Of a DNA stretch of 64,000 bases, positions 53,263 to 64,000 are shown in pieces (positions within the stretch are counted from its first letter, which is position 1; the number at the start of each line of letters is the position of its first letter). The stretch is taken from the NCBI GenBank assembly GCA_964478235.1, contig CAYZGX010000005.1:246-64245 (forward strand), in the 5' to 3' direction. The translations under genes and the position numbers were made by a program. Origin of the DNA: an uncultured Gammaproteobacteria bacterium. GTDB lineage: Bacteria; Patescibacteriota; Patescibacteriia; Magasanikbacterales; GWA2-37-8. Below the pieces are notes generated by a model. That model did not search any database. It saw only the letters and a program-made list of their open reading frames with translations, and had not been told where the DNA came from.

Positions 53263-53460
53263 CTACCTCTTCAAAAGCTCCATAATAAACGCTCTCGTCC
53301 CCGCAGCAAATTTACCGGTCCCTTTGGTGAGGCCAAGCGGGGTGAGAATTGACTTAGCGTTCGCTTCTTGGAAGCGAATAAGGGCGAGTCGAGTGGCCGA
53401 GCCAAAATAGTTAGTTTCTTTACCTGGTGACCCTGGGCCAGATTTAGCGACGGTGAAACC
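53263..53460. repeat. about 200-bp segment near-identical (about 3 mismatches) to 56919-57116 (3' ends of the two giant genes)
   Basis: Direct comparison of the two sequences; divergence rises sharply further upstream. Confidence 0.85.
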
Positions 53461-56400
53461 AAGAGCGTTTAACACTCGCTGCAACAATCGAACCTGGGTG
53501 TCATTCATACCGAGCTGCAATACTTTGGTGAGACGAGCGGTGCCAAGAGCCTGCTTGAGAGCGTTAATCGACAGAGTTTGAATGGAGGGTACCAAAGGAA
53601 CAACTGGTTTAGCCATCGTTGAGGTTGCAGGGGATGTTGAAGTAGCTGGAGTAATAATTTGCACCGTTGTCGTTGTGGTCGGAACAAAAACCTCTTGGTC
53701 AGAATAGCCAACAAGAGGTGGACTTGAACCGCCATAGGACGGAGTTGCAACAGTCGTCGCCGAAGGAGGAACGAAAGACAATGTCACGTTGCTTAGAACT
53801 GGACTTGTAACCCCACTCGAAGAAGTTAAATAGGCTTTATACTGAACAAATTGATCGTCAACACCATCAGTAAAAGCTGAATTAAGCACTTCTCCACCAG
53901 AAGTAACAAAATACGTTGAGGTGGTATTATCTGGGCCAACCCATTCAGCAGCATCCAATGTGGTAGTAGTATTCCCCGTTCTAATCTGAAAACGAACCGT
54001 CGTGCTAGTTGAGGTGGCCGCCGTCCATTCCAAGCTATCTATAACACTTGCCGAATTACTACTGTCGTAGACCGAAGAGATTAATGTGCCAGACGAAGTG
54101 TACGACACAAAATTAAAAGTGAGATTCTTTAATTGTGGTGATTTGGTTGTGTCAGAAGTAGACAAAAATGCTTTATACTTTACATACTTTGCAGCCGTAG
54201 TCAGCCCCTCAGCCAAAGTTGAAGAACCGGTTGTAAAATAGGTACTCGCTGTTCCGTCAGTTCCAAAAAAACTTGAGTAACTAACATTGTCTGTTGATGT
54301 GGCGATCTGTAAACGAAGAGAGTCACTACCAATAGATCTAGGCGTTGAAGATGACCAGCTGAAACTGTACGGTCGAGTACCGTCAAAAGAAAAAGGGGCT
54401 GAAGTAAAATTACCAGAAGACTGATACGTTTTTTGATTAATGACGTATTTAATGTAGGCAGTACTTGTATTGCTGGTATACAGATGATAGTAAAAAGAAC
54501 TATGATCTGCATCGGGTATAAGGTACCCGCACGCCCCAGTAGGAAAAGGCATCTGCGGTAACACTTGCCAAGCAGAAGAGGTCTCAGATAGTGGGTGTCT
54601 CCAAAAACCGGTGGCCGCACTAGTACCTTGAACAACATACGCAAACCCATCAAGAATAGTGAGGGAGGCACAGGAACTGAGCGTGCCAGGCAGAGTTGAA
54701 AATGTATCCCAAGCACTCGATGTGTTAGCCAACGTATGGCGATAAAACGCCGTACCCCCATTACGCATAACATACAAATAGTCATCATCAATGCCCATAT
54801 ATTTGTTACCAACAAAAGTAAAGATATTTGCTGGAGTATTAGCTAGTGATTCCCATGGAGTTGAGGTGTTGGTCAACACATGACGATAGGTACTCGACGT
54901 ATTTCCACCACGCAGTACGTAAACATGATCATTGCTAAAAGAAATAGACGCAGCATTACCAACAGCTGCTGGTAAATCAACAAAAACATCCCATGGAGAA
55001 GAGGTGCTGTTGATATCGCGTCGATACAAACTTTTTGCAGAACCAACTGCTCCAGGAAGATAGTAGAAATAGCCATCTCGTATTTCCGCTGAGCCGTATT
55101 GCCCTGTAGTTGTTGGTAGAGTAATGTAAGATTCCCAAGCACTCGACGTATTGGCTTTAGTATGCCGATACAGGGCGTCAGCTCGTAGTGCTGCTAAAAA
55201 ATAAACATAATTATCGTCACTTAAAATAGCCACACCGTTGCTAACGGTAGCAACTGTTGTGGGAAATCCACTAGTTGTTGTAATAGTGGCAAAAATTTCC
55301 CAAGGGGTTGAAGTAAGAGCGTAGTCGCGCCGATAAAACTGAGAGCTGCTCGCACCAGCATACATATAGTGATCATCAACATGAAAAGAGATGCCGGATA
55401 AAAAAGGAAGGTTCTGGATAAAATGATTATCTAGCCCACCAATCCAATTACTTGAAGTGTTGGTGAGCACATGTCGATACATAGCGGTATTACCACCGCC
55501 TTGTATAACATGAATAAATGAATCATCAACTGCCAAAGCAGCGCCTGCTCCCGGCGTTGCAGGAAGTGAAGAAAAGAGCTCCCAAGCCGTAGATGTTTCT
55601 GACAAAGTATGTCTAAGAAATTGCGCAGCACCGCTGCGTAACATGTAAATATAATTAGCATCGACAGCAATAGCCCCACCAGCCGAAAGACCATACGGCG
55701 TAGTGGAAGCAAAAAAATCCCAAGGTGTTGAGGTATTGCTTAATTCGTGACGATATGTGGTCGTAGCAAAGCCAGTGGTCGTACCGAGAAGAATATATAT
55801 ATAATTAGCATCAATCGCAGCCGTACTTCCCGTTGTAACAATTTTAGGTAGCACCGCAAAAGGTTCCCAAGCGGTCGATGTTGCCGACGTTGTGTGACGA
55901 TACGACGTAGTCGCATTACCTGTAAACACATACACATAGTTAGAATCGGCCAACAATTGACCGCCAGTACTAACGCTGGCTGGCAATACAGTAAATGATT
56001 CCCACGATGTAGAAGTATTGGCCAGAGTGTGGCGATAAAATGCTGTACTACTTCCTCGTAAAACATAGAGGTATTGACTGTCAATTGCCAGGCCAGTTCC
56101 AGTACCTGTCGCCCCAGGCAGAGCTGTAAATGATTGCCATCCAGCCGAAGTATTAGTTATCGAATGACGGTAGACATCGGTACTAGTACCACGTAATACA
56201 TACAAATAATCTGAATCAATTGCCAAAAAGACGGTCGAACCAACTGTTGCTGGTAAATCAGAATACGAAACCCAGGTATTATTAGTTGTATCGAAACGAC
56301 TCATCTTACCAACAAAGCTGGTGCTGGTTGAGTGTAGTACGTACACATACGTACCCGTGACCGCCATATCACTAATACCAACCGTGCCAGGGATTGGCGG

Positions 56401-56811
56401 ATAGGGAACTTCAAAAGCATCAACCTGCACTTCAGTAGTCGTAGCGAGAGAAATAAAACCAGTGGCATTCAAATTAGAATACCGTAATTGCAACTGACTA
56501 AGTGTACCATTCAAAAAACCACCGCCTGTCACCACGCCAGACAAAGTTGAAGTAACATCATCAACAGCAGGAAAATAAGACGCTGAAAGACGCAAATTTC
56601 CAATATTTCCAAAATCTATATTCGTTGAAGTTGAAAAATACAACCACCCCGTCCGATCACCCGGATCAACTGCTGCCGTCGAAGTTGTGTCCCCACTCCA
56701 ATCAGCTTGATAAAATGCCACTGAAGTAGCGGCATAAACAATTTGTTGAACAGAGACAAAAAAAGCTAAAAAAGAGAGGAGACCTAATAAAAAAACACGA
56801 GGAAAAGACAT
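53263..56811 (-). CDS. giant secreted/anchored Kelch-like-repeat surface protein with C-terminal peptidoglycan-binding (PG_binding_1-like) domain
   Basis: 1182 aa. N-terminal signal/TM. More than 16 copies of an approximately 46-aa unit (YLYVLRG-x-ST-x-YRH-x-L-x-NTS-x-W-E/D-x-F-x-x-LP-x-G-x-A-x-D) resembling divergent Kelch blades. Two jelly-roll-like middle modules. Thr/Pro linker. C-terminal VLQLGMNDTQVRLLQRVLNALGF...GKETNYFGSATRLALIRFQEANA. Confidence 0.85.
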   Translation of the reverse strand: MSFPRVFLLGLLSFLAFFVSVQQIVYAATSVAFYQADWSGDTTSTAAVDPGDRTGWLYFSTSTNIDFGNIGNLRLSASYFPAVDDVTSTLSGVVTGGGFLNGTLSQLQLRYSNLNATGFISLATTTEVQVDAFEVPYPPIPGTVGISDMAVTGTYVYVLHSTSTSFVGKMSRFDTTNNTWVSYSDLPATVGSTVFLAIDSDYLYVLRGTSTDVYRHSITNTSAGWQSFTALPGATGTGTGLAIDSQYLYVLRGSSTAFYRHTLANTSTSWESFTVLPASVSTGGQLLADSNYVYVFTGNATTSYRHTTSATSTAWEPFAVLPKIVTTGSTAAIDANYIYILLGTTTGFATTTYRHELSNTSTPWDFFASTTPYGLSAGGAIAVDANYIYMLRSGAAQFLRHTLSETSTAWELFSSLPATPGAGAALAVDDSFIHVIQGGGNTAMYRHVLTNTSSNWIGGLDNHFIQNLPFLSGISFHVDDHYMYAGASSSQFYRRDYALTSTPWEIFATITTTSGFPTTVATVSNGVAILSDDNYVYFLAALRADALYRHTKANTSSAWESYITLPTTTGQYGSAEIRDGYFYYLPGAVGSAKSLYRRDINSTSSPWDVFVDLPAAVGNAASISFSNDHVYVLRGGNTSSTYRHVLTNTSTPWESLANTPANIFTFVGNKYMGIDDDYLYVMRNGGTAFYRHTLANTSSAWDTFSTLPGTLSSCASLTILDGFAYVVQGTSAATGFWRHPLSETSSAWQVLPQMPFPTGACGYLIPDADHSSFYYHLYTSNTSTAYIKYVINQKTYQSSGNFTSAPFSFDGTRPYSFSWSSSTPRSIGSDSLRLQIATSTDNVSYSSFFGTDGTASTYFTTGSSTLAEGLTTAAKYVKYKAFLSTSDTTKSPQLKNLTFNFVSYTSSGTLISSVYDSSNSASVIDSLEWTAATSTSTTVRFQIRTGNTTTTLDAAEWVGPDNTTSTYFVTSGGEVLNSAFTDGVDDQFVQYKAYLTSSSGVTSPVLSNVTLSFVPPSATTVATPSYGGSSPPLVGYSDQEVFVPTTTTTVQIITPATSTSPATSTMAKPVVPLVPSIQTLSINALKQALGTARLTKVLQLGMNDTQVRLLQRVLNALGFTVAKSGPGSPGKETNYFGSATRLALIRFQEANAKSILTPLGLTKGTGKFAAGTRAFIMELLKR

Positions 56812-56817
56812 AGTAGA

Positions 56818-56827
56818 GGGGGGGGGG
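56818..56827. repeat. homopolymeric G10 (C10 on coding strand) tract 6 nt upstream of the giant-protein-1 start codon
   Basis: Read directly: ...CCTG-C10-TCTACT-ATG on the minus strand. Confidence 0.9.
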
Positions 56828-56915
56828 CAGGAACAACCAGAAAAATAAAAATCGCTTACTTATTTTATCAAAAATAATGGGAAGAAGCAATTGGTCAAGA
56901 TTTTTAAACTAAACG

Positions 56916-59900
56916 CTAGCGCCGAAGCAAGTCCATAATAAACGCTCTCGTCCCCGCAGCAAATTTACCGGTCCCTTTGGTGAGGCCAAGCGGGGTGAGA
57001 ATTGACTTAGCGTTCGCTTCTTGGAAGCGAATGAGGGCGAGTCGAGTAGCCGAGCCAAAATAGTTAGTTTCTTTACCAGGTGACCCTGGGCCAGATTTAG
57101 CGACGGTGAAACCAAGAGCGTTCAGAGCGCGCTGGAGAAGGCGGACTTGTGAATCCACAGTGCCCGTTTGAAGAACTTTAGTGAGGCGAGCAGTGCCGAG
57201 GGCTTGTTTGAGAGCGACGACGGGTGCGAGGGCTACCCCTGGCGATGTAGGTTGAGTTGGGATAACTGGTGCGACTTCTGGTAAGACTGGTGACACAACT
57301 GGTTCAGTGGTTGTTGGGGCTACCGGTAGTGTTGAAGTGGCAGGGGTAGTGGTTGGAGCGACGACTACCACGGTAGTCGTCGGCGTAGAGACAGCTGCCT
57401 CAAGATCTGAGTAGCCAATCAAAGGCGGGCTTGAACCGCCGTATACTGGAGCTGAATTGTTCGGAGGAATAAACGACAGAGCAACATCACTCAAAACAGG
57501 ACTCGTCGCTCCACTTGAAGAAAAGAGAGCTTTGTACTGTACAAATTGATCGCCAGCCCCGTCGGTAAATGCTGAATTAAGTGTTTCACTACCCGAAGTA
57601 GAAAAATACGTTGAAGAAGTATTGTCTGGACCAACCCATTCAGCCGCGTCCAAAGTTATTGTGCTATCCCCTGTTCGAATTTGAAAACGAAGGGTGGCGC
57701 TCGCTGAGGTAGTGCCTGTCCACTCTAAACCAGAAATCTTACTTCCAGAATCATTACTATTATACACTGACGAAATAAGCGTACCGCTCGCCGAATAGGC
57801 CGAATAATTAAAGGTAATATCTTCTAAACGCGGAGAAAAATCAGTATTATCAGTGCTCAAATACGCTTTGTATTTAAGATATTGTGTAGGGGCAGTTATT
57901 GCGCCGGTCAAAGTTGTCGACCCGGTCGTAAAATAAGTACCAACTGTCCCGTCGGGGCCAAAATAACTGGAATAAGTACTATTATCTGACGAAGTAGCTA
58001 TTTGTAAACGAAGCGCTGAGCTTCCGGTGACAACCGGAGTTGAAGATGACCAGCGAACACTCTCAAGACGAGCTGCGCCAAGTGACAAAGCGGGTGAAGT
58101 AAAATCACCAGAAGAAGAATAAACTAAATCATTAACAACAAATCTAAATATTAAATCAGACGAGCTACCACAAATAAGATAAATAATATCTTTATCCTGC
58201 GAAAAAACCATACCACCACCATTACTCACACTGCATGGTTGAGCTTGAAGAACCTCCCAAGCAGTAGAGGTGCTCGCCAGAGTATGTCGCCAAAAACCAA
58301 CCCCCGAACTATTCCCTTGTAACACATACGCATAAGTATCGGTCAGAAGAACAGTCGCTCGAGAAGCAGTGTTACCCGGCATAGCAGTAAACGATTCCCA
58401 AGCACTAGAAGTGTTAGAAAGCACATGCCGATAAAACCCCGTACTCCCACCTTGTACAACATACAAATGAGTATCGTTTATAGCCATCAACGAATTTGAT
58501 CCAGCGGCGACAGAAACATTTCCTGGCAAATTAGTGAAAGTATCCCACGCCGTGGAAGTGGAATTAAGAGCGTGGCGGTAGGTGCTTGAAGTAGAGCCAC
58601 CGCGCACCACATACACATAGTCGTTATCAAAAACAAACGAAGCTCCTCCGCCCATAGCAGCGGGCAGTGCCGTAAATGACTCCCACGCAGACGAAGTTAC
58701 CGCCGAAAGATGGCGGTACAACCCAGTTTTTTCAGCTGTATTTCCTTGAAGGAAATAAAGGTAATCACCGTTAACAGCTATTGAGGCGGTTGACCCTGTT
58801 GAAGTTGGAGCTGCAGCATACGAATCCCACGAAGATGTCGGTGTAGCCGACAAAGATCGACGATAAAAACCGGTTGTCGACCCAAGCATGGCATAGGCAA
58901 AATTTTCATCAACAACCAACGAAGTTCCATTGCCCAAGGTAGCGGCCGGCGCTGTTGAAGACGCCCAAGCCGAAGTCGTACTTATCAAATCATGCCGAAA
59001 AAATCCTATTGCCGGAGAAGAACCAGCTAATACATACAAATTGTTTTTATTAATAGAAAAGGTAGGCAAAGCACCGCCACCAACAAGAGCGGGCAGTGGG
59101 GGGAAATTTGGCGATGTTGACCCAATCCAAGCGCTTGATGTGTCAGATATAGCATGTCTCGCTATACTTGTTGGATATGCAAATACATGCAAAAAATCAG
59201 TGCCAAGAGATAAGCCAGCGGCTGTAGAAGAAAACGCCACGGTAGATGTTATTGTATCCCAAGCGCTTGAAGTATTAGCTGTGGTATGGCGATATACCTG
59301 AGCCGCTGAGCCACGGGAGAAAAATAAATAATTAGCATTAACCTCCAAACCACTGACAGTGGCGGCAGCGGCCGGAAGTGTTGTAAACGCCTCCCAAGCT
59401 GAAGATGTATTTGTTAAATCATGACGCAAAGTTGTAGTTCCCGCTCCACCAGCTGCCGTGCTAGCAATAACATACAAATAATTAGCATCGAGAGCTGCCT
59501 GCGAACCAGAAGTCACTACATACGGTAAATTAGTGAAAGCTTCCCACGAAGTAGAAGTGCTTGTTTTTGAATGACGATAGGTTGTGCTAACACTATTGCC
59601 CGGAAGAACATACAGATAATTGGCATCGACCAATAATTTACCCCCACTACTCAATGTCGAAGGAAGAACTGTAAATGAATCCCATGAAGCCGAGGTATTT
59701 GAAACAGCATGACGATAAATATTTGTACTAGAACCACGAGCTACATAGAGATAAGTTTCATCGACAACTACAGCAGCGGCTGTCCCAACTGAGCCGGGCA
59801 GCGCAGTGAACGACTCCCACCCTGCCAAAGTATTAGAAATAGCATGACGATAAAAACTCGTACCAGTACCTAGCAACAGATAGATATAAGTGTCATCAAT

Positions 59901-60551
59901 AGTCATGGTCACATTAGTACCAGCAGCTGACGGCGAATCAGTGTAAGAAGCCATTACATTAGCGGAGTAATCATAGCGGTGCACCTTAGCTACAAAACTT
60001 GTACTCGTAACCTGCAGTATATATATATAAGTGCTTGTCGCAATAATTTTTCCATTCAATCCCATTTGACCGGGGATAGCTGGCACAAGACTATCAAATG
60101 CATTAATTGCAACTTCAGTCGTAGTTGCAAGCGCAACATAACCAGTCGTATTTAAGCTCGAGCGCAGAAGCTGAACCTGATTGAGGGTGCCACTCAAAAA
60201 CCCACCACCAAAAGCAAGGCCAGAGTAAGTAGAGGTGATATCATCAACAAACGAAAACGTTGATGAAGTCAGGCGAAGAGCGTTCGTGATGGTAAAATCA
60301 AGGTAGGTTGAAGTAGAATAGCCATTCCAACCAGTACGATCGGTTGGATCACTGGCGGCAGTTGAGGTAACTCCCCCACTCCAACTTTCCTGATAAAAGG
60401 CAACTGATGTGGCGGCAAGAGCAATTTGTTGGGCTAAAAATACAAAACCAAGAATAGCTACAAAACCAAAAATAAGACTATTTTTAATGGTCTCGGAAAA
60501 GAATCTAGCGATAGATAATTTTGAGGAAATTTTAGATAATAGCAATTTCAT
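56916..60551 (-). CDS. giant secreted/anchored Kelch-like-repeat surface protein, paralogue of 53263-56811, with C-terminal peptidoglycan-binding domain
   Basis: 1211 aa; same architecture and the same YRH/NTS/W/LP/LYV repeat; C-terminal about 70 aa nearly identical to the downstream paralogue. Confidence 0.85.
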   Translation of the reverse strand: MKLLLSKISSKLSIARFFSETIKNSLIFGFVAILGFVFLAQQIALAATSVAFYQESWSGGVTSTAASDPTDRTGWNGYSTSTYLDFTITNALRLTSSTFSFVDDITSTYSGLAFGGGFLSGTLNQVQLLRSSLNTTGYVALATTTEVAINAFDSLVPAIPGQMGLNGKIIATSTYIYILQVTSTSFVAKVHRYDYSANVMASYTDSPSAAGTNVTMTIDDTYIYLLLGTGTSFYRHAISNTLAGWESFTALPGSVGTAAAVVVDETYLYVARGSSTNIYRHAVSNTSASWDSFTVLPSTLSSGGKLLVDANYLYVLPGNSVSTTYRHSKTSTSTSWEAFTNLPYVVTSGSQAALDANYLYVIASTAAGGAGTTTLRHDLTNTSSAWEAFTTLPAAAATVSGLEVNANYLFFSRGSAAQVYRHTTANTSSAWDTITSTVAFSSTAAGLSLGTDFLHVFAYPTSIARHAISDTSSAWIGSTSPNFPPLPALVGGGALPTFSINKNNLYVLAGSSPAIGFFRHDLISTTSAWASSTAPAATLGNGTSLVVDENFAYAMLGSTTGFYRRSLSATPTSSWDSYAAAPTSTGSTASIAVNGDYLYFLQGNTAEKTGLYRHLSAVTSSAWESFTALPAAMGGGASFVFDNDYVYVVRGGSTSSTYRHALNSTSTAWDTFTNLPGNVSVAAGSNSLMAINDTHLYVVQGGSTGFYRHVLSNTSSAWESFTAMPGNTASRATVLLTDTYAYVLQGNSSGVGFWRHTLASTSTAWEVLQAQPCSVSNGGGMVFSQDKDIIYLICGSSSDLIFRFVVNDLVYSSSGDFTSPALSLGAARLESVRWSSSTPVVTGSSALRLQIATSSDNSTYSSYFGPDGTVGTYFTTGSTTLTGAITAPTQYLKYKAYLSTDNTDFSPRLEDITFNYSAYSASGTLISSVYNSNDSGSKISGLEWTGTTSASATLRFQIRTGDSTITLDAAEWVGPDNTSSTYFSTSGSETLNSAFTDGAGDQFVQYKALFSSSGATSPVLSDVALSFIPPNNSAPVYGGSSPPLIGYSDLEAAVSTPTTTVVVVAPTTTPATSTLPVAPTTTEPVVSPVLPEVAPVIPTQPTSPGVALAPVVALKQALGTARLTKVLQTGTVDSQVRLLQRALNALGFTVAKSGPGSPGKETNYFGSATRLALIRFQEANAKSILTPLGLTKGTGKFAAGTRAFIMDLLRR
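56919..57116. repeat. second copy of the near-identical 3' segment
   Basis: See 53263-53460. Confidence 0.85.
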
Positions 60552-60687: not shown

Positions 60688-61098
60688 TTAGGAAACAGCG
60701 TCCTTTTTGAGCAAAAGAGGTAAAAGACGATTTTTACCCTGCCACAAGAAGTACAAATTAAGAAGAAGCATTACATTGCCCATAACTGCTCCGCCAGTGA
60801 GGAGTCCACCATCGAGAAAAGCATGAAAACCAACGATATTAAGCGTAATCGGTAAAAGAAGAAAAGCGGCGAGAGCTGTTCGATCTATCCAGATAAGCAC
60901 CAAGCTGATCGCAAAAACCAAGGACATGAGGTAGTTAATGTACTTTCCCTGCATCAGCGCCTCAATAAAGGCAAACGCTTCTTTTGAGGTGTACATATCA
61001 GCTGTTGGCGGTGGGAAAATCCCTAGCACCCCCAGCAGTGGCATAATTAAAATCAGACTCAAAAGAACCTTGAGAAAGATAGTCAGATATTTTTTCAT
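60688..61098 (-). CDS. small polytopic membrane protein (DoxX-like?), function unknown
   Basis: About 136 aa from ATG 61098 (MKKYLTIFLKVLL...), 3-4 TM; the ORF-track extension to 61155 begins with TTG. Confidence 0.5.
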   Translation of the reverse strand: MKKYLTIFLKVLLSLILIMPLLGVLGIFPPPTADMYTSKEAFAFIEALMQGKYINYLMSLVFAISLVLIWIDRTALAAFLLLPITLNIVGFHAFLDGGLLTGGAVMGNVMLLLNLYFLWQGKNRLLPLLLKKDAVS

Positions 61099-61155
61099 AG
61101 AGTATATAAAATAATTAACACATATAGTGTACAGGACAGGGTATAAATAGGGCAA

Positions 61156-61239
61156 GTGAGAGCGCTTCGCTATTCAGAGATTCGGCTTCGCCTCTCGGTG
61201 AGAGCGCTTCGCTATTCGAAGATTCGGCTTCGCCTCTCG
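61156..61239. repeat. 2 x 42-bp tandem direct repeat (2 mismatches) inside a GC-rich (about 65-70%) 190-nt leader/spacer
   Basis: GTGAGAGCGCTTCGCTATTCAGAGATTCGGCTTCGCCTCTCG repeated at 61156-61197 and 61198-61239; each unit has internal short hairpins (GGC-GAA-GCC, AGCG-AAG-CGCT on the minus sense). Confidence 0.85.
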
Positions 61240-61342
61240 TCGACTTCCGTCTCCTCGGGCTAGCCACCGCCTCGCGGTCGCGCTCGCCCGACTGCGTCGC
61301 GCGACATCGCTCCGGCGTTCGAATCTCTCCTCTTTCTTCTAC

Positions 61343-61378
61343 AAAACAAATGACACCCACTAGGGTGTCATTTGTTTT
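61343..61378. terminator. rho-independent terminator (12-bp perfect stem) downstream of the coiled-coil/2TM gene
   Basis: CAAATGACACCC-ACTA-GGGTGTCATTTG flanked by A-run and T-run. Confidence 0.8.
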
Positions 61379-61407
61379 GCGGGGATGGGGAGACTTCCTT
61401 GAAACCC
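61379..61407. repeat. 29-nt exact dispersed repeat copy 1 (GCGGGGATGGGGAGACTTCCTTGAAACCC)
   Basis: Identical to 62977-63005. Both copies lie in the 3' UTR of a minus-strand gene, between the stop codon and a terminator. Confidence 0.9.
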
Positions 61408-61444
61408 GGTTACGGAACGAAGGCCTCGTGTCGTCCTAGGTTCC

Positions 61445-62530
61445 CTACTCGGAATCGGCTTCCTTATCCTCACCACTGACAAGTTTCTTGATTGGACCAA
61501 GAATCTTATCGAATAGCGGCGGGTCCTCGCGATGCGTTTCGTTGTCCAGTGTACCGCTTGGGTTGAAAGCGGAGGATGTCACCATGTTACTTAAGAGAGA
61601 AACGAGAATCTCCCTGTTTTCATCGACTTCTCCCAGTTGGTCGAGCTGCTTTTTGTAACCGATGTAGGACTTCGCAACACTTTCCTTATGTGCATATTCC
61701 TGGGCAAGGCGCTTGTTCTGACTCTGTTGCTTGCTAGCAAAATGAGCCAACCAAACGGCTGGAATAAAAAATGGCAATCTTGCGATCACACGCGAAAGGG
61801 TCTCTGTGAGAGTAGCCCCGATAACAACACTCGGCTTGAGGCTGAGGATTGCATACAGCGCCATGGAAGCAATCGTAACGATGAACGTGCCTGTCCAAAA
61901 CTTATTCGGCTTATCATAGCTCGTCTTCTGGTTTTCGTAGACAGCCGCCAAACCCGCACTGGTTGCACCAGGCAACAACCCCTCAATTTGTTCGATTAGC
62001 GAATCGTATCGCTTCTTAGTGTCCAGTCGCAACTGCTCGAGTTCGGTCTTGTTGGATTCGATCTCTTGTTTGAGTCCTCCCACTACTTTGCCTGCATCAT
62101 CAGGAATACCAAATATTTTGGCATAGTACTCGTCGAATTCCTTCTTCGCCTTCTCGACGGACTTGAGGATACCATCAAACTCAGCCGACGCATCTCGAAT
62201 ACCCTGTTCGATGGATACTTCGTCCCCCTCGCCAGAAAAGACTTCGTCGTGAAACTCGCTAATATCTGCGCTAGCAGTTTTCACTGCATCCCATTTAGTT
62301 TTGATATCAACCGATGCCTCGTCAATCTGAGTTTTGACACTTTTTTGGTTTGCCGAATCCGTCAACAAGTAATCCTTGTAAGTGGTGAGGTCGAGAATCA
62401 GCTTGTTGCCGACCGTTCTTAACTCATTTACGGCTCTGGAGATCTGAATTTTCTGACTTCGCGGCAACTCTTCAGCGACGGACAGAGCCGGTGCTGGTAT
62501 CTCAAGAGGGGGAAGTGGTGCGTTTTCCAT
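61445..62530 (-). CDS. hypothetical protein: about 200-aa N-terminal coiled-coil, 2-TM hairpin, about 90-aa C-terminal tail
   Basis: Heptad-rich N-terminus (KTELEQLRLDTKKRYDSLIEQIEG), two helices FWTGTFIVTIASMALYAILSL and LPFFIPAVWLAHFA separated by a short loop. Confidence 0.6.
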   Translation of the reverse strand: MENAPLPPLEIPAPALSVAEELPRSQKIQISRAVNELRTVGNKLILDLTTYKDYLLTDSANQKSVKTQIDEASVDIKTKWDAVKTASADISEFHDEVFSGEGDEVSIEQGIRDASAEFDGILKSVEKAKKEFDEYYAKIFGIPDDAGKVVGGLKQEIESNKTELEQLRLDTKKRYDSLIEQIEGLLPGATSAGLAAVYENQKTSYDKPNKFWTGTFIVTIASMALYAILSLKPSVVIGATLTETLSRVIARLPFFIPAVWLAHFASKQQSQNKRLAQEYAHKESVAKSYIGYKKQLDQLGEVDENREILVSLLSNMVTSSAFNPSGTLDNETHREDPPLFDKILGPIKKLVSGEDKEADSE

Positions 62531-62566
62531 ATGCTTCGGAAAATATAAGAATGTAATGAATCAAGC

Positions 62567-62776
62567 CTATGCCTTGGCACAGGTATTGTCAAATGGTGGC
62601 GGAGTAGGTTGAACGAAGACAGCGAGGGCCGCGATAGCGTCGATCGTATTCACAGCCATTTCGCTAATCTCCTGGTCGGTGTAGCCGGTTGGTGCGCCAA
62701 GGTCCGCCTCCAATGCTTCACGAAATCTGACAACGTCTTCCCTGCTCAGAGCCGTGGCTAGAATGGTATTAATCAT
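62567..62776 (-). CDS. hypothetical 69-aa protein
   Basis: Small ORF in the same orientation between the Abi-like gene and the coiled-coil/2TM gene. Confidence 0.4.
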   Translation of the reverse strand: MINTILATALSREDVVRFREALEADLGAPTGYTDQEISEMAVNTIDAIAALAVFVQPTPPPFDNTCAKA

Positions 62777-62910
62777 GCCTATTTTTTACCGGACCTACCG
62801 CGATCTGTCAATCCCGAACACGATGCCACCAAAAGTGGCTTAACTTAGCCAAGTGGGTTCTAACTGTCTCGCTCTCCTGGCCATCTTTTGAAAGGTCGAA
62901 AAAGTGAGGG

Positions 62911-62938
62911 TCAAAAAAGCCCGCAACGATGCGGGCTA
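62911..62938 (-). terminator. rho-independent terminator downstream of the Abi-like gene
   Basis: GCCCGCATCGTTGCGGGCTTTTTTGA on the minus strand. Confidence 0.8.
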
Positions 62939-62976
62939 GAGGGTCAGTCCAAATTTTTACAAATTTGTGACTCTTG

Positions 62977-63005
62977 GCGGGGATGGGGAGACTTCCTTGA
63001 AACCC
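62977..63005. repeat. 29-nt exact dispersed repeat copy 2
   Basis: See 61379-61407. Confidence 0.9.
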
Positions 63006-63056
63006 AGTTCACCAAACTTTCTGGTTCAGCCGAGTCGCCGCCGGCTGCATAGTCAA

Positions 63057-63938
63057 TTAGCGTACCGGCAAAATCTTTCCTGCTGCGACTTGGGCCTCAA
63101 AGGTGTCGAGCAAAAAATCGCATACGGTCTTTGCTGCATTCACGACGAGCTTGGCATGCCGACGAGCAGGCCGATAGAGTAGTGGATGCGAATCGCTCAT
63201 TCTGTTTCGGATAGGAGCAAGTCCAGAAACAATGTTGGTCAACCCGGTAAGAACGAGATGAAACGGTTGGTTTTCAGGCGTCTTTGGATCGATGTTCAGA
63301 GCGATCTGGACACGTCTCATTAATTGGCCCAGTTCGCCATTGTAGGGAGGTGGTGAGAGGACGGCACGTCGTTCCATCTCCTGAAGGACAGTCTCAACTA
63401 AAGTTCTTGCCGAAGTGATCGCACCAGTAAAATCATCGCCGAGCAGGCGCGTTTCCGATTTTTCAACGTGTTCATGGATAAATTCGTGTGATAACGGATC
63501 CAACCCGCCGCTCCTCGCTTCCATAGAAACGAGCCCTTCGTCCGCACGTCGAACTACATAGCCACTTTTCCCCTCTAGAAGTGACCACCCATCTCGCTCA
63601 AGATAACGCCTAACGTAGTCTACCGCCGTGTCGATCGAAATATTGTGGTCCTGAAAATACGCAGGGTCGAGGGCTGCCGCAACCATCGGCTCAAAATGTG
63701 GAGTTCCGACTAGGGAGCGTACACGTTCCTCGGCGAGCATCCATCGTGATTTTCCACCGCTTCCCGAATAAACATCATTGAAGCCGAACTCATTGAAGAA
63801 CCGCAAAATCTCCGGTCCCGTCCGATAGGGTGCAACGGCCGGCTTGTGAACTGACACCCAGTCTCCTGTAATTACTTTTTGAATCGCCTCGATTGTCTTT
63901 TCCGAAACCATGGGCTTCGCGGTCTGTGAGTTTGTCAT
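63057..63938 (-). CDS. Abi_C/HEPN-like abortive-infection-type protein (AbiJ-like architecture)
   Basis: C-terminal block IVSGLAPIRNRMSDSHP contains an Rx4-6H motif (RNRMSDSH), as in HEPN/Abi_C domains; N-terminal region is unassigned. Confidence 0.55.
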   Translation of the reverse strand: MTNSQTAKPMVSEKTIEAIQKVITGDWVSVHKPAVAPYRTGPEILRFFNEFGFNDVYSGSGGKSRWMLAEERVRSLVGTPHFEPMVAAALDPAYFQDHNISIDTAVDYVRRYLERDGWSLLEGKSGYVVRRADEGLVSMEARSGGLDPLSHEFIHEHVEKSETRLLGDDFTGAITSARTLVETVLQEMERRAVLSPPPYNGELGQLMRRVQIALNIDPKTPENQPFHLVLTGLTNIVSGLAPIRNRMSDSHPLLYRPARRHAKLVVNAAKTVCDFLLDTFEAQVAAGKILPVR

Positions 63939-64000
63939 AGCGAATCAATTATATTACACACACCGATTCCGTCAACCGGGATCTTTCAGCCGACCATCCG

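Follow-up and report, generated by a model that had tools for sequence, protein, structure and literature searches.

One end of a 64,000-nucleotide stretch of contig CAYZGX010000005.1 (assembly GCA_964478235.1), hereafter the window, carries an islet of co-directional genes on the minus strand. The original prediction, made from the sequence letters, put this region forward as a candidate defence island with a HEPN/Abi_C-like protein, a small open reading frame (ORF), and a coiled-coil protein with a two-transmembrane (2-TM) hairpin. The ORF listing confirms the three genes: g1 (63057-63938, minus strand), encoding 293 residues; g2, also termed sB (62567-62776, minus strand), encoding 69 residues; and g3 (61445-62530, minus strand), encoding 361 residues. 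The window end truncates the unit, and the contig L001 (ENA ERZ4216102 NODE_2323; window position equals 73939 minus L001 position) runs on past it. Upstream of g1 on L001 are, in order, the 68-residue gene sA (whole gene at L001 9761-9967, with the last 29 nt of its 3′ end at 63972-64000 of the window, minus strand), the first copy of a leader repeat termed X, a tRNA-Ser(GGA) gene, and the housekeeping genes lgt, a LOG-family gene, an amidase gene, tsaE, rarA, and a PLD-family gene.

The full unit comprises four genes in two modules, arranged as tRNA-Ser, followed by X, sA, g1, and a 36-nt repeat, followed by X′, g2, g3, and a second 36-nt repeat, and closed by a terminator hairpin. Both modules share one build, consisting of a leader with 139 identical nucleotides, a promoter-like box, a gene for an acidic paralogue of 68 or 69 residues, a large gene, and the 36-nt repeat, and the repeat-bounded units are 1.4 and 1.6 kb in size. 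The co-directionality of the proposed three-gene system thus stands, but its composition does not, as there are four genes in two modules and g1 has a promoter-like site and a terminator of its own. The slightly elevated GC content that had been noticed is borne out: it is 49.9% at 61376-64000 compared with 45.9 ± 1.5% elsewhere, and no equal-sized stretch in the other 61 kb matches it. The Abi_C profile is matched by g1, and the genes are not core genes in all relatives. The designation as a candidate defence island is upheld by the raised GC content, the adjacency to a tRNA gene, and the membership of both large genes in patchy accessory families found among defence genes. On this circumstantial evidence, the region appears to be a genuine defence-type islet with one routine AbiJ-like part, g1, and one undescribed family with good circumstantial defence credentials, that of g3. 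The value of the locus lies in g3, whose family is unnamed and carries the annotation "hypothetical protein" even in RefSeq Escherichia coli.

The g3 family and its genomic company

The g3 protein is predicted to be all-helical in an AlphaFold2 (AF2) model based on a 32-sequence alignment (pLDDT, the predicted local distance difference test score, of 70.9; predicted template modelling score (pTM) of 0.38). The earlier description of g3 as a coiled coil joined to a 2-TM hairpin holds in its helical character and in its first transmembrane segment, TM1, and is less secure for the second, TM2. TM1 (residues 212-233; 61832-61897, minus strand) is clear, with a Kyte-Doolittle 19-residue mean of 1.78. 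TM2 (residues 247-266; 61733-61792, minus strand) is helical and hydrophobic and is the weaker segment, with a Kyte-Doolittle value below 1.6. Lysine and arginine residues lie on both outer flanks of TM1 and TM2 and none lie in the loop, which makes a hairpin with both termini in the cytoplasm plausible. The hairpin belongs to a conserved core (residues 181-335; 61526-61990, minus strand) that consists of the motif LLPGATSxGLA, TM1, TM2, the motif SKQQSQNKRLxQEYAxKE, and the motif NPSxTL..H..PP. The family alignment has 39 invariant columns, 38 of them in residues 182-338, and mean pairwise identity is 53% in the core versus 24% in the N-terminal coiled coil.

Protein searches return 488 matches to the g3 family at E ≤ 1e-3, and a scan of one genome per species (185,579 species) returns 155 confirmed stretches with a patchy distribution across phyla. 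Members are found in groups of the candidate phyla radiation (CPR), in Bacteroidota, Campylobacterota, Gamma-, Beta-, and Alphaproteobacteria, and Verrucomicrobiota, and in Leptospira; the closest g3 relatives of the source bacterium are CPR/Patescibacteria. Against Pfam, NCBIfam, and PADLOC, g3 gives nothing at E ≤ 1 beyond coiled-coil noise, and when 32 family members are scanned singly, the 25 most-matched families include neither SLATT nor any consistent family. Weak matches to the g3 family come from two PHROGs of unknown function (3e-9 and 2e-5), and the literature on the rlo genes of Campylobacter holds no description of it. As judged from these profile searches, g3 belongs to a large unnamed family of predicted membrane proteins that lacks a Pfam, NCBIfam, or PADLOC-2023 model.

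SLATT proteins, to which g3 had been likened, are reportedly 2-TM effectors of conflict systems. What g3 has in common with them is a predicted two-helix membrane hairpin joined to cytoplasmic helices, together with conflict or defence neighbourhoods, and this is a functional analogy only. The resemblance finds no counterpart at the level of profiles: neither Pfam SLATT_1-6 nor SLATT_fungal matches g3 at E ≤ 1, and the signature motifs LLPGATSxGLA, SKQQSQNKRLxQEYAxKE, and NPSxTL..H define a separate family. Enzymes of nucleotide signalling (SMODS/CD-NTase, SLOG, and TIR) are found neither in the window nor among the top 25 families listed for the 115 immediate neighbours of g3 homologues considered below.

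The layout of a coiled coil plus a hydrophobic hairpin also recalls the ClyA/Hbl-type α-helical pore-forming toxins, which raises the question of whether g3 is such a toxin or another secreted effector directed against other cells. Over the coiled coil, MakE and NheB are weak matches of the family profile (~2e-4), and one homologue carries a precomputed Bacillus_HBL Pfam tag. These matches are confined to the low-complexity coiled coil and are treated as compositional because they are found alongside chemoreceptors and designed coiled coils. In addition, g3 has no signal peptide or partner subunit, and its conserved part is the hairpin and the cytoplasmic juxtamembrane helix, not the stalk. 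With PDB matches at the level of the coiled coil and a Foldseek comparison to YaxA at E = 2.4 and TM 0.16, a ClyA-type identity was rejected, and we regard a role of g3 as a toxin against other cells as extremely unlikely. A structural identity for g3 was also sought by sequence profile in the PDB, and that search gave only coiled-coil noise.

The neighbourhoods of g3 homologues were compared by calling ORFs in 80 loci with 8-kb flanks and clustering the neighbours. The only recurrent partners across the 80 loci are HsdM, HsdS, and HsdR. In 11 of the 80, hsdS of a Type I restriction-modification (R-M) operon has a g3 homologue as its direct neighbour, and 10 of these 11 homologues are co-directional with and downstream of hsdS, often with overlapping stop and start codons. 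These R-M-embedded homologues come from at least six lineages; their hosts are Sulfurimonas, Campylobacter concisus, Rheinheimera, Pseudidiomarina, Marinobacter, Marinobacterium, Methylococcaceae, two Bacteroidota, and a Leptospiria metagenome-assembled genome. The same 11 operons also hold genes for Shedu SduA, a KAP NTPase, an HTH-M78 protein, FRG-TPR, and DUF4268/PDDEXK. An R-M-specific N-terminal adaptor in the embedded homologues was considered and rejected, as the homologues in 8 embedded loci have an N-terminal type that is also found in 29 non-embedded ones.

Genes embedded in Type I R-M operons include those of the PrrC/RloC anticodon nucleases. Similar to other embedded genes, the g3 homologues in the 11 operons occupy the slot after hsdS and before or near hsdR. 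Defence genes have been demonstrated in this slot (PMC11411939; Payne et al. 2024). TgvAB are defence genes inside a Type I R-M operon of V. cholerae (PMC11411939), and seven of the nine candidates tested in a "guilt-by-embedding" screen were protective (Payne et al. 2024). R-M embedding can be taken as a predictor of defence because these two studies validate it. The text and supplements of Payne et al. 2024 contain no transmembrane or coiled-coil candidate and no description of the g3 family. In contrast to embedded genes of the PrrC, RloC, or TgvAB type, g3 has no nuclease or ATPase domain, and the copy in the window is not R-M-embedded.

Among the 115 immediate neighbours in the non-embedded loci, no family recurs. 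Many are defence genes, among them R-M genes (Type IIG MmeI, methylases of Type III and EcoRI, and NgoFVII), genes of other kinds (Abi_alpha, AbiGi, SoFic, a pPIWI-associated nuclease, and Cas4), and the PADLOC candidates PDC-S01, S11, S47, and M50A. The second-closest g3 homologue (L005) neighbours an EcoRI-type methylase. Distant homologues with the core motifs are found on 14 plasmids and in the Providencia phage PSTCR8lys, all annotated "hypothetical protein"; in this temperate phage, the gene sits right after the Q antiterminator. Homologues are also present on seven IMG/VR contigs.

Among 5,426 complete genomes of E. coli, 13 (that of strain HS is one) have a P2-like prophage with a distant member of the family, and a plasmid-borne P2-like prophage of Klebsiella carries it too. 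In strain HS (L103 5038-7392; NC_009800.1 925165-927519), the genes for WP_000700647.1 (225 residues) and WP_001003256.1 (463 residues, the g3 family member) fill exactly the slot between the gpA replication endonuclease/DinI and the portal gpQ. Their position is that of P2 hotspot cargo: the gpA-gpQ slot, home of old and tin, has been defined as the defence hotspot of P2 (Rousset et al. 2022, PMC9122126). WP_001003256.1, annotated "hypothetical protein" in RefSeq, is 19% identical to g3 (A6 alignment), and its near-identical Klebsiella copy matches by tblastn at 24.8% identity over the core (E = 7e-6). WP_000700647.1 has no Pfam match. The E. coli HS homologue is not among the systems in the text of Rousset et al. 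2022 (PMC9122126), and neither accession is mentioned in the searchable literature.

The g3 family is recurrently embedded in or adjacent to known defence systems across unrelated taxa, and in at least six lineages its neighbours are of the kind expected around defence genes. By this association, g3 may have a defence role. The member in E. coli HS makes the family directly testable against standard phage collections.

The HEPN protein and the small acidic proteins

The identification of g1 as a HEPN/Abi_C protein proved correct. Pfam Abi_C (PF14355) matches residues 205-278 at 63.9 bits (cutoff 24; E = 1.5e-17), spanning profile positions 2-83 of 83. The PADLOC search, which returned nothing for g3, matches g1 to its AbiJ model at 8e-22 in two stretches, the best of them at residues 150-281. 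A database search yields 43 full-length homologues, all 43 of which contain PF14355 and some of which are named "abortive infection family protein" by NCBI. The HEPN Rx4-6H motif RNRMSDSH (R244-x6-H251; 63186-63209, minus strand) is real. It comprises residues 244-251 of 293, within the C-terminal domain and short of the very end of the protein, where it had been placed. N245 and D249 do not vary across an alignment of 27 sequences, at least 90% of which have H251.

The AF2 model of g1 (pLDDT 89.8) comprises an N-terminal α/β domain (residues ~13-131) and a C-terminal helical HEPN domain (residues ~151-285). The best Foldseek PDB matches of the C-terminal domain are HEPN proteins, 2hsb (probability 1.00, TMt 0.71), 1o3u, 4nqf, 2q00, and 1wol, although with weak E-values (0.15-0.7), and AbiV stands at rank 41 of the list. 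No AbiJ_NTD (Pfam) is detected in the N-terminal domain, and AbiJ_NTD3 is carried by only two distant g1 relatives; residues 13-99 weakly match the N terminus of the PADLOC Stk2 model (1.3e-5). The three closest homologues on long contigs neighbour BrxR, AbiEii, DUF4062, an SMC-like ATPase, and HEPN_Swt1/DUF499/DUF1156, and the upstream neighbour differs in each of the three loci.

Similar to AbiJ/Abi_C proteins, g1 has the Abi_C profile, the PADLOC AbiJ match, the Rx6H motif, a HEPN-like C-terminal fold, a length of ~290 residues, and a single-gene transcription unit. It differs from them in the undetected AbiJ_NTD and in the small acidic ORF that precedes it, which is absent from described AbiJ loci. 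From profile and fold, g1 can be classed as a routine Abi_C/AbiJ-type HEPN protein with nothing new in it, and by analogy with this group, it would probably act as an RNase-type abortive-infection effector.

Each large gene is preceded at a distance of 33-36 nt by one of the two small genes. The products sA and g2 are paralogues (phmmer 7.6e-13, 48% identity) with isoelectric points (pI) of 4.5 and 4.1, respectively. A coding test gives a nonsynonymous divergence (dN) of 0.45 with saturated synonymous sites and 38 third-position differences versus 22 and 23, and a single reading frame is open in both; by these measures, sA and g2 can be accepted as real coding genes. The family is nearly an orphan, with 16 weak relatives among 1.84 billion representative proteins in an exhaustive HMMER search. 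It has no match in Pfam, the PDB, or NCBIfam and none to a known antitoxin family; among PHROGs, g2 has no match and sA has only a weak one, phrog_26014 (E = 0.0025). The few metagenomic contexts of its relatives, on short high-GC contigs, reveal no consistent partner. The acidity of sA and g2 is more in keeping with an inhibitor or antitoxin than with a protein that binds DNA, and with low confidence, the two are proposed as a common neutralising or regulatory, antitoxin-like partner of either effector.

The locus of the closest g3 homologue, L004 from Moraniibacteriota, also has a small ORF upstream of and co-directional with the g3-type gene (L004 7521-7802; 93 residues). This ORF bears a weak likeness to Cas2 that falls short of the Pfam cutoff (E = 1.9e-4). 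It is unrelated to sA and g2, so the small upstream partner of g3-type genes varies.

A small acidic protein (pI 4.1-4.5) encoded 33-36 nt ahead of a larger gene is an arrangement that two toxin-antitoxin-like addiction modules would also have, and such modules could stabilise a mobile or decaying element without a dedicated anti-phage role. HEPN proteins are common toxins, and homologues lie on plasmids and prophages, as this explanation would have it. It would also demand that toxins of two unrelated kinds be neutralised by one small-protein family. Known antitoxin families give no match to the small protein, and elsewhere it does not accompany these toxin families, so that, in contrast to type II toxin-antitoxin systems, the pairing of small gene and putative toxin at this locus is not conserved in other genomes. 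The g3 homologues, for example those within hsd operons, usually have no small upstream partner. Addiction modules are thus considered an unlikely explanation of the islet.

Transcription signals, repeats, and mobility

A σ70-like promoter, TTGACG-16-TATAAT (63948-63975, minus strand), which is a consensus match only (11 of 12 positions), sits inside the sA 3′ end, with 9 nt between it and the g1 ATG. An intrinsic terminator follows g1 (62918-62937, minus strand) and comprises an 8-bp stem with six GC pairs and a T-run. With a promoter-like site before it and a terminator hairpin after it, g1 appears to be its own transcription unit. A second promoter-like box, TTGACA-17-TAAAAA, was read from the sequence before g2 (62783-62811, minus strand) and ends 6 nt before the g2 ATG. 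The same box with the same spacing precedes sA (L001 9725-9753), 6-7 nt from the ATG, in leaders that have otherwise diverged. The g2-g3 unit ends in a perfect 17-bp hairpin followed by a T-run (61342-61379, minus strand; fold z-score -5.8). The ends of the promoter-like boxes, 6-9 nt before the ATGs of sA, g2, and g1, suggest leaderless or near-leaderless mRNAs in the source organism.

These signals bear on the proposal that g1, g2, and g3 form one integrated system in which a HEPN protein, a small ORF, and a coiled-coil/2-TM protein act together, for example as a sensor nuclease and a pore-forming effector. The genes are co-directional and adjacent and have raised GC content in common, and the leader and the paralogous small protein found in both modules could allow co-regulation. 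Between g1 and g2, however, lie an intrinsic terminator and separate promoter-like boxes, and AbiJ-type and g3-type proteins each stand alone in many unrelated contexts. No g1 or g2 relative is found within 8 kb of a g3 homologue in any of the 80 loci (phmmer and a hidden Markov model of the small-protein family), and the loci of g1 homologues, whose neighbours are unrelated in the closest cases, contain no g3 or small-ORF relatives; the co-occurrence of the two families is 0 in 80 plus 5 loci. A single three-gene system is accordingly regarded as highly improbable. The terminator between g1 and g2 and the absence of g1-g3 co-occurrence elsewhere argue that the modules are independent, and the best reading of the region is two independent defence-type cassettes.

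The tRNA-Ser(GGA) gene (L001 9463-9551, beyond the window end; ARAGORN and Rfam, 55.8 bits) marks the start of the islet. Copy 1 of X starts within the last 17 nt of this gene and extends through L001 9694, outside the window. Copy 2, X′ (62832-62991, minus strand), is the second member of this 160-nt direct repeat with 96% identity, 139 nt of which are exact (62842-62980); it contains the g1 terminator and directly follows the 36-nt repeat located 3′ of g1. That 36-nt repeat is copy 1 (62974-63009, minus strand; 3′ of the g1 stop; 29-nt exact core at 62977-63005). Copy 2 (61376-61411, minus strand; 29-nt core at 61379-61407) lies 3′ of the g3 stop at the distal edge of the islet. The 29-nt repeats noticed earlier are indeed present in two exact copies, versus 0 expected by chance, and extend to 36 nt at 94% identity. 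The longer repeat closes with 19 nt that match the tRNA-Ser 3′ end at 14 of 19 positions, counted on the alignment. The 29-nt repeat was also considered as a widespread att site or a structured RNA and rejected in both roles, having no matches in the collections, no Rfam family, and no consistent fold.

This arrangement suggests that the islet was horizontally acquired by insertion directly 3′ of tRNA-Ser(GGA) and that it may be mobile. Similar to tRNA-linked integrative islands or cis-mobilisable cassettes, the islet begins at the 3′ end of a tRNA gene, is bounded and subdivided by direct repeats, and has an atypical GC content. It differs from them in the small size of the cassettes, only 1.4-1.6 kb, and in the absence of a recombinase from 74 kb of contig; the precomputed Pfam annotations of L001 likewise include none. 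A further likeness is provided by a Parcubacteria relative, Parcubacteria group bacterium ARS72 (L024 3934-8783), in which tRNA-Ser(GGA) abuts a large serine recombinase (Resolvase, Recombinase, and Zn_ribbon_recom) flanked by 155-nt inverted repeats that are 98% complementary. Beyond these are a 205-residue protein, two small membrane proteins, a g3 homologue, and an EEP-family nuclease; the g3 homologue is ~2 kb beyond the recombinase and 4 kb from the tRNA gene. The ARS72 locus has the appearance of an element, integrative or invertible, located at a gene for the same tRNA isoacceptor.

The contigs L003, L085, and L086 are 100% identical to L001, which indicates the same strain, and the contigs break at the repeats. 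In a 903-nt contig, L087 (JGI 3300045394), the g1 3′ end, the 36-nt repeat, and X are joined to sA and the g1 5′ end, which could represent a junction of tandem or circular copies of the first cassette or, equally, an assembly chimera across the exact 139-nt repeat. Just past the second cassette, at 61317-61329 on the plus strand, 13 nt (GTTCGAATCTCTC) reproduce the tRNA-Ser T-loop/T-stem sequence exactly in inverted orientation. As a tRNA fragment at the distal border, this 13-nt match is marginal (E ~0.06; local score 30 versus 21 ± 3 for shuffles, with a maximum of 32) and was set aside.

Reading of the islet and its surroundings

The reading to which we give slightly better than even standing is that of an acquired two-module islet at tRNA-Ser that would pair a HEPN effector and a membrane-acting g3 with small regulators. 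In the first module, the AbiJ/Abi_C HEPN protein would, by homology, cleave RNA and arrest the infected cell. In the second, g3 would defend on its own by acting on the membrane, and its fast-evolving coiled coil in the cytoplasm may serve as the sensing or specificity part. The conserved hairpin and the polar juxtamembrane helix would be the executing part and perturb the membrane once triggered, for example by an oligomerisation that depolarises or permeabilises it. This execution by the conserved membrane module is a tentative proposal that we think somewhat more apt to be wrong than right. Either sA or g2 may hold the effector of its module in check in the manner of an antitoxin.

Several observations weigh against the islet being an acquired, membrane-acting defence unit of this kind. 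Of the 80 g3 loci, 69 are not R-M-embedded, and no PADLOC v2 model matches g3 (2023 release, to which 145 embedded candidates were later added, the g3 family perhaps among them). The TM2 segment is only moderately hydrophobic, the AF2 model of g3 is only moderate in quality (pLDDT 70.9, pTM 0.38), and a Foldseek search with it against the PDB finds no neighbour at E < 1; given the moderate model and the lack of such a neighbour, the membrane mechanism is best described as conjecture. The small-protein family occurs beside g1- or g3-type genes nowhere else among the loci and metagenome contigs examined, and for this reason, comparison does not lend support to an antitoxin role. With respect to mobility, jackhmmer searches with serine and tyrosine recombinase queries give 0 matches in the 64-kb window and 10 kb upstream. 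The 36-nt repeat matches the tRNA end at only 14 of 19 positions and its core has 0 matches in the metagenome and viral collections scanned, which is why the islet is regarded as only putatively mobile.

A broader proposal is that g3 represents a new and widespread family of membrane-acting anti-phage proteins that rides on Type I R-M operons, prophage hotspots, and plasmids, and that in CPR, g3 and an unrelated HEPN effector are carried as integrase-less mini-cassettes at tRNA-Ser with an identical leader and a plug-in small acidic control protein. Taken whole, this proposal is doubtful, if possible. Immune systems are thought to be sparse in CPR/Patescibacteria, and if g3 protects, it would give genes of these bacteria a defence function and would constitute a membrane-effector family untied to cyclic-nucleotide signalling. 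The twin cassettes, in which the same leader and small-protein family accompany two unrelated effectors at a tRNA gene, are a smaller lead on recombinase-free swapping of defence cargo in tiny genomes.

The islet lies near genes for giant surface proteins, and the g3 of CPR could instead be a component of the cell envelope or of a surface apparatus tied to these proteins rather than an immune gene. In both the window and the Moraniibacteriota locus L004, some hundreds of bases separate the g3-type gene from the genes for small membrane proteins and a giant surface protein of >1,200 residues. Outside CPR, there are no such neighbours, and R-M operons, a prophage hotspot, and plasmids are found instead. 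The second-closest homologue, L005, has an EcoRI-type methylase as its neighbour, and the window copy lies inside a GC-atypical, repeat-bounded islet. A surface role for g3 is considered quite improbable.

The giant surface proteins beside the g3-type gene have 1,182, 1,211, and 1,708 residues and are located at 53263-60551 of the window and at L004 10245-15371; their adjacency to g3 in the window and in its closest Moraniibacteriota relative may reflect synteny or coincidence. PG_binding_1 is recorded only weakly, for a separate 1,052-residue protein upstream on L001. Between the islet and the giant surface genes is a gene for a 155-residue multi-pass membrane protein (60688-61155, minus strand) that has no match in Pfam, NCBIfam, or PADLOC. 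A GC-rich stretch without a convincing gene and without an Rfam match (61156-61340) separates the islet from this membrane-protein gene and contains two tandem 42-nt repeats (61156-61239) with 95% identity.

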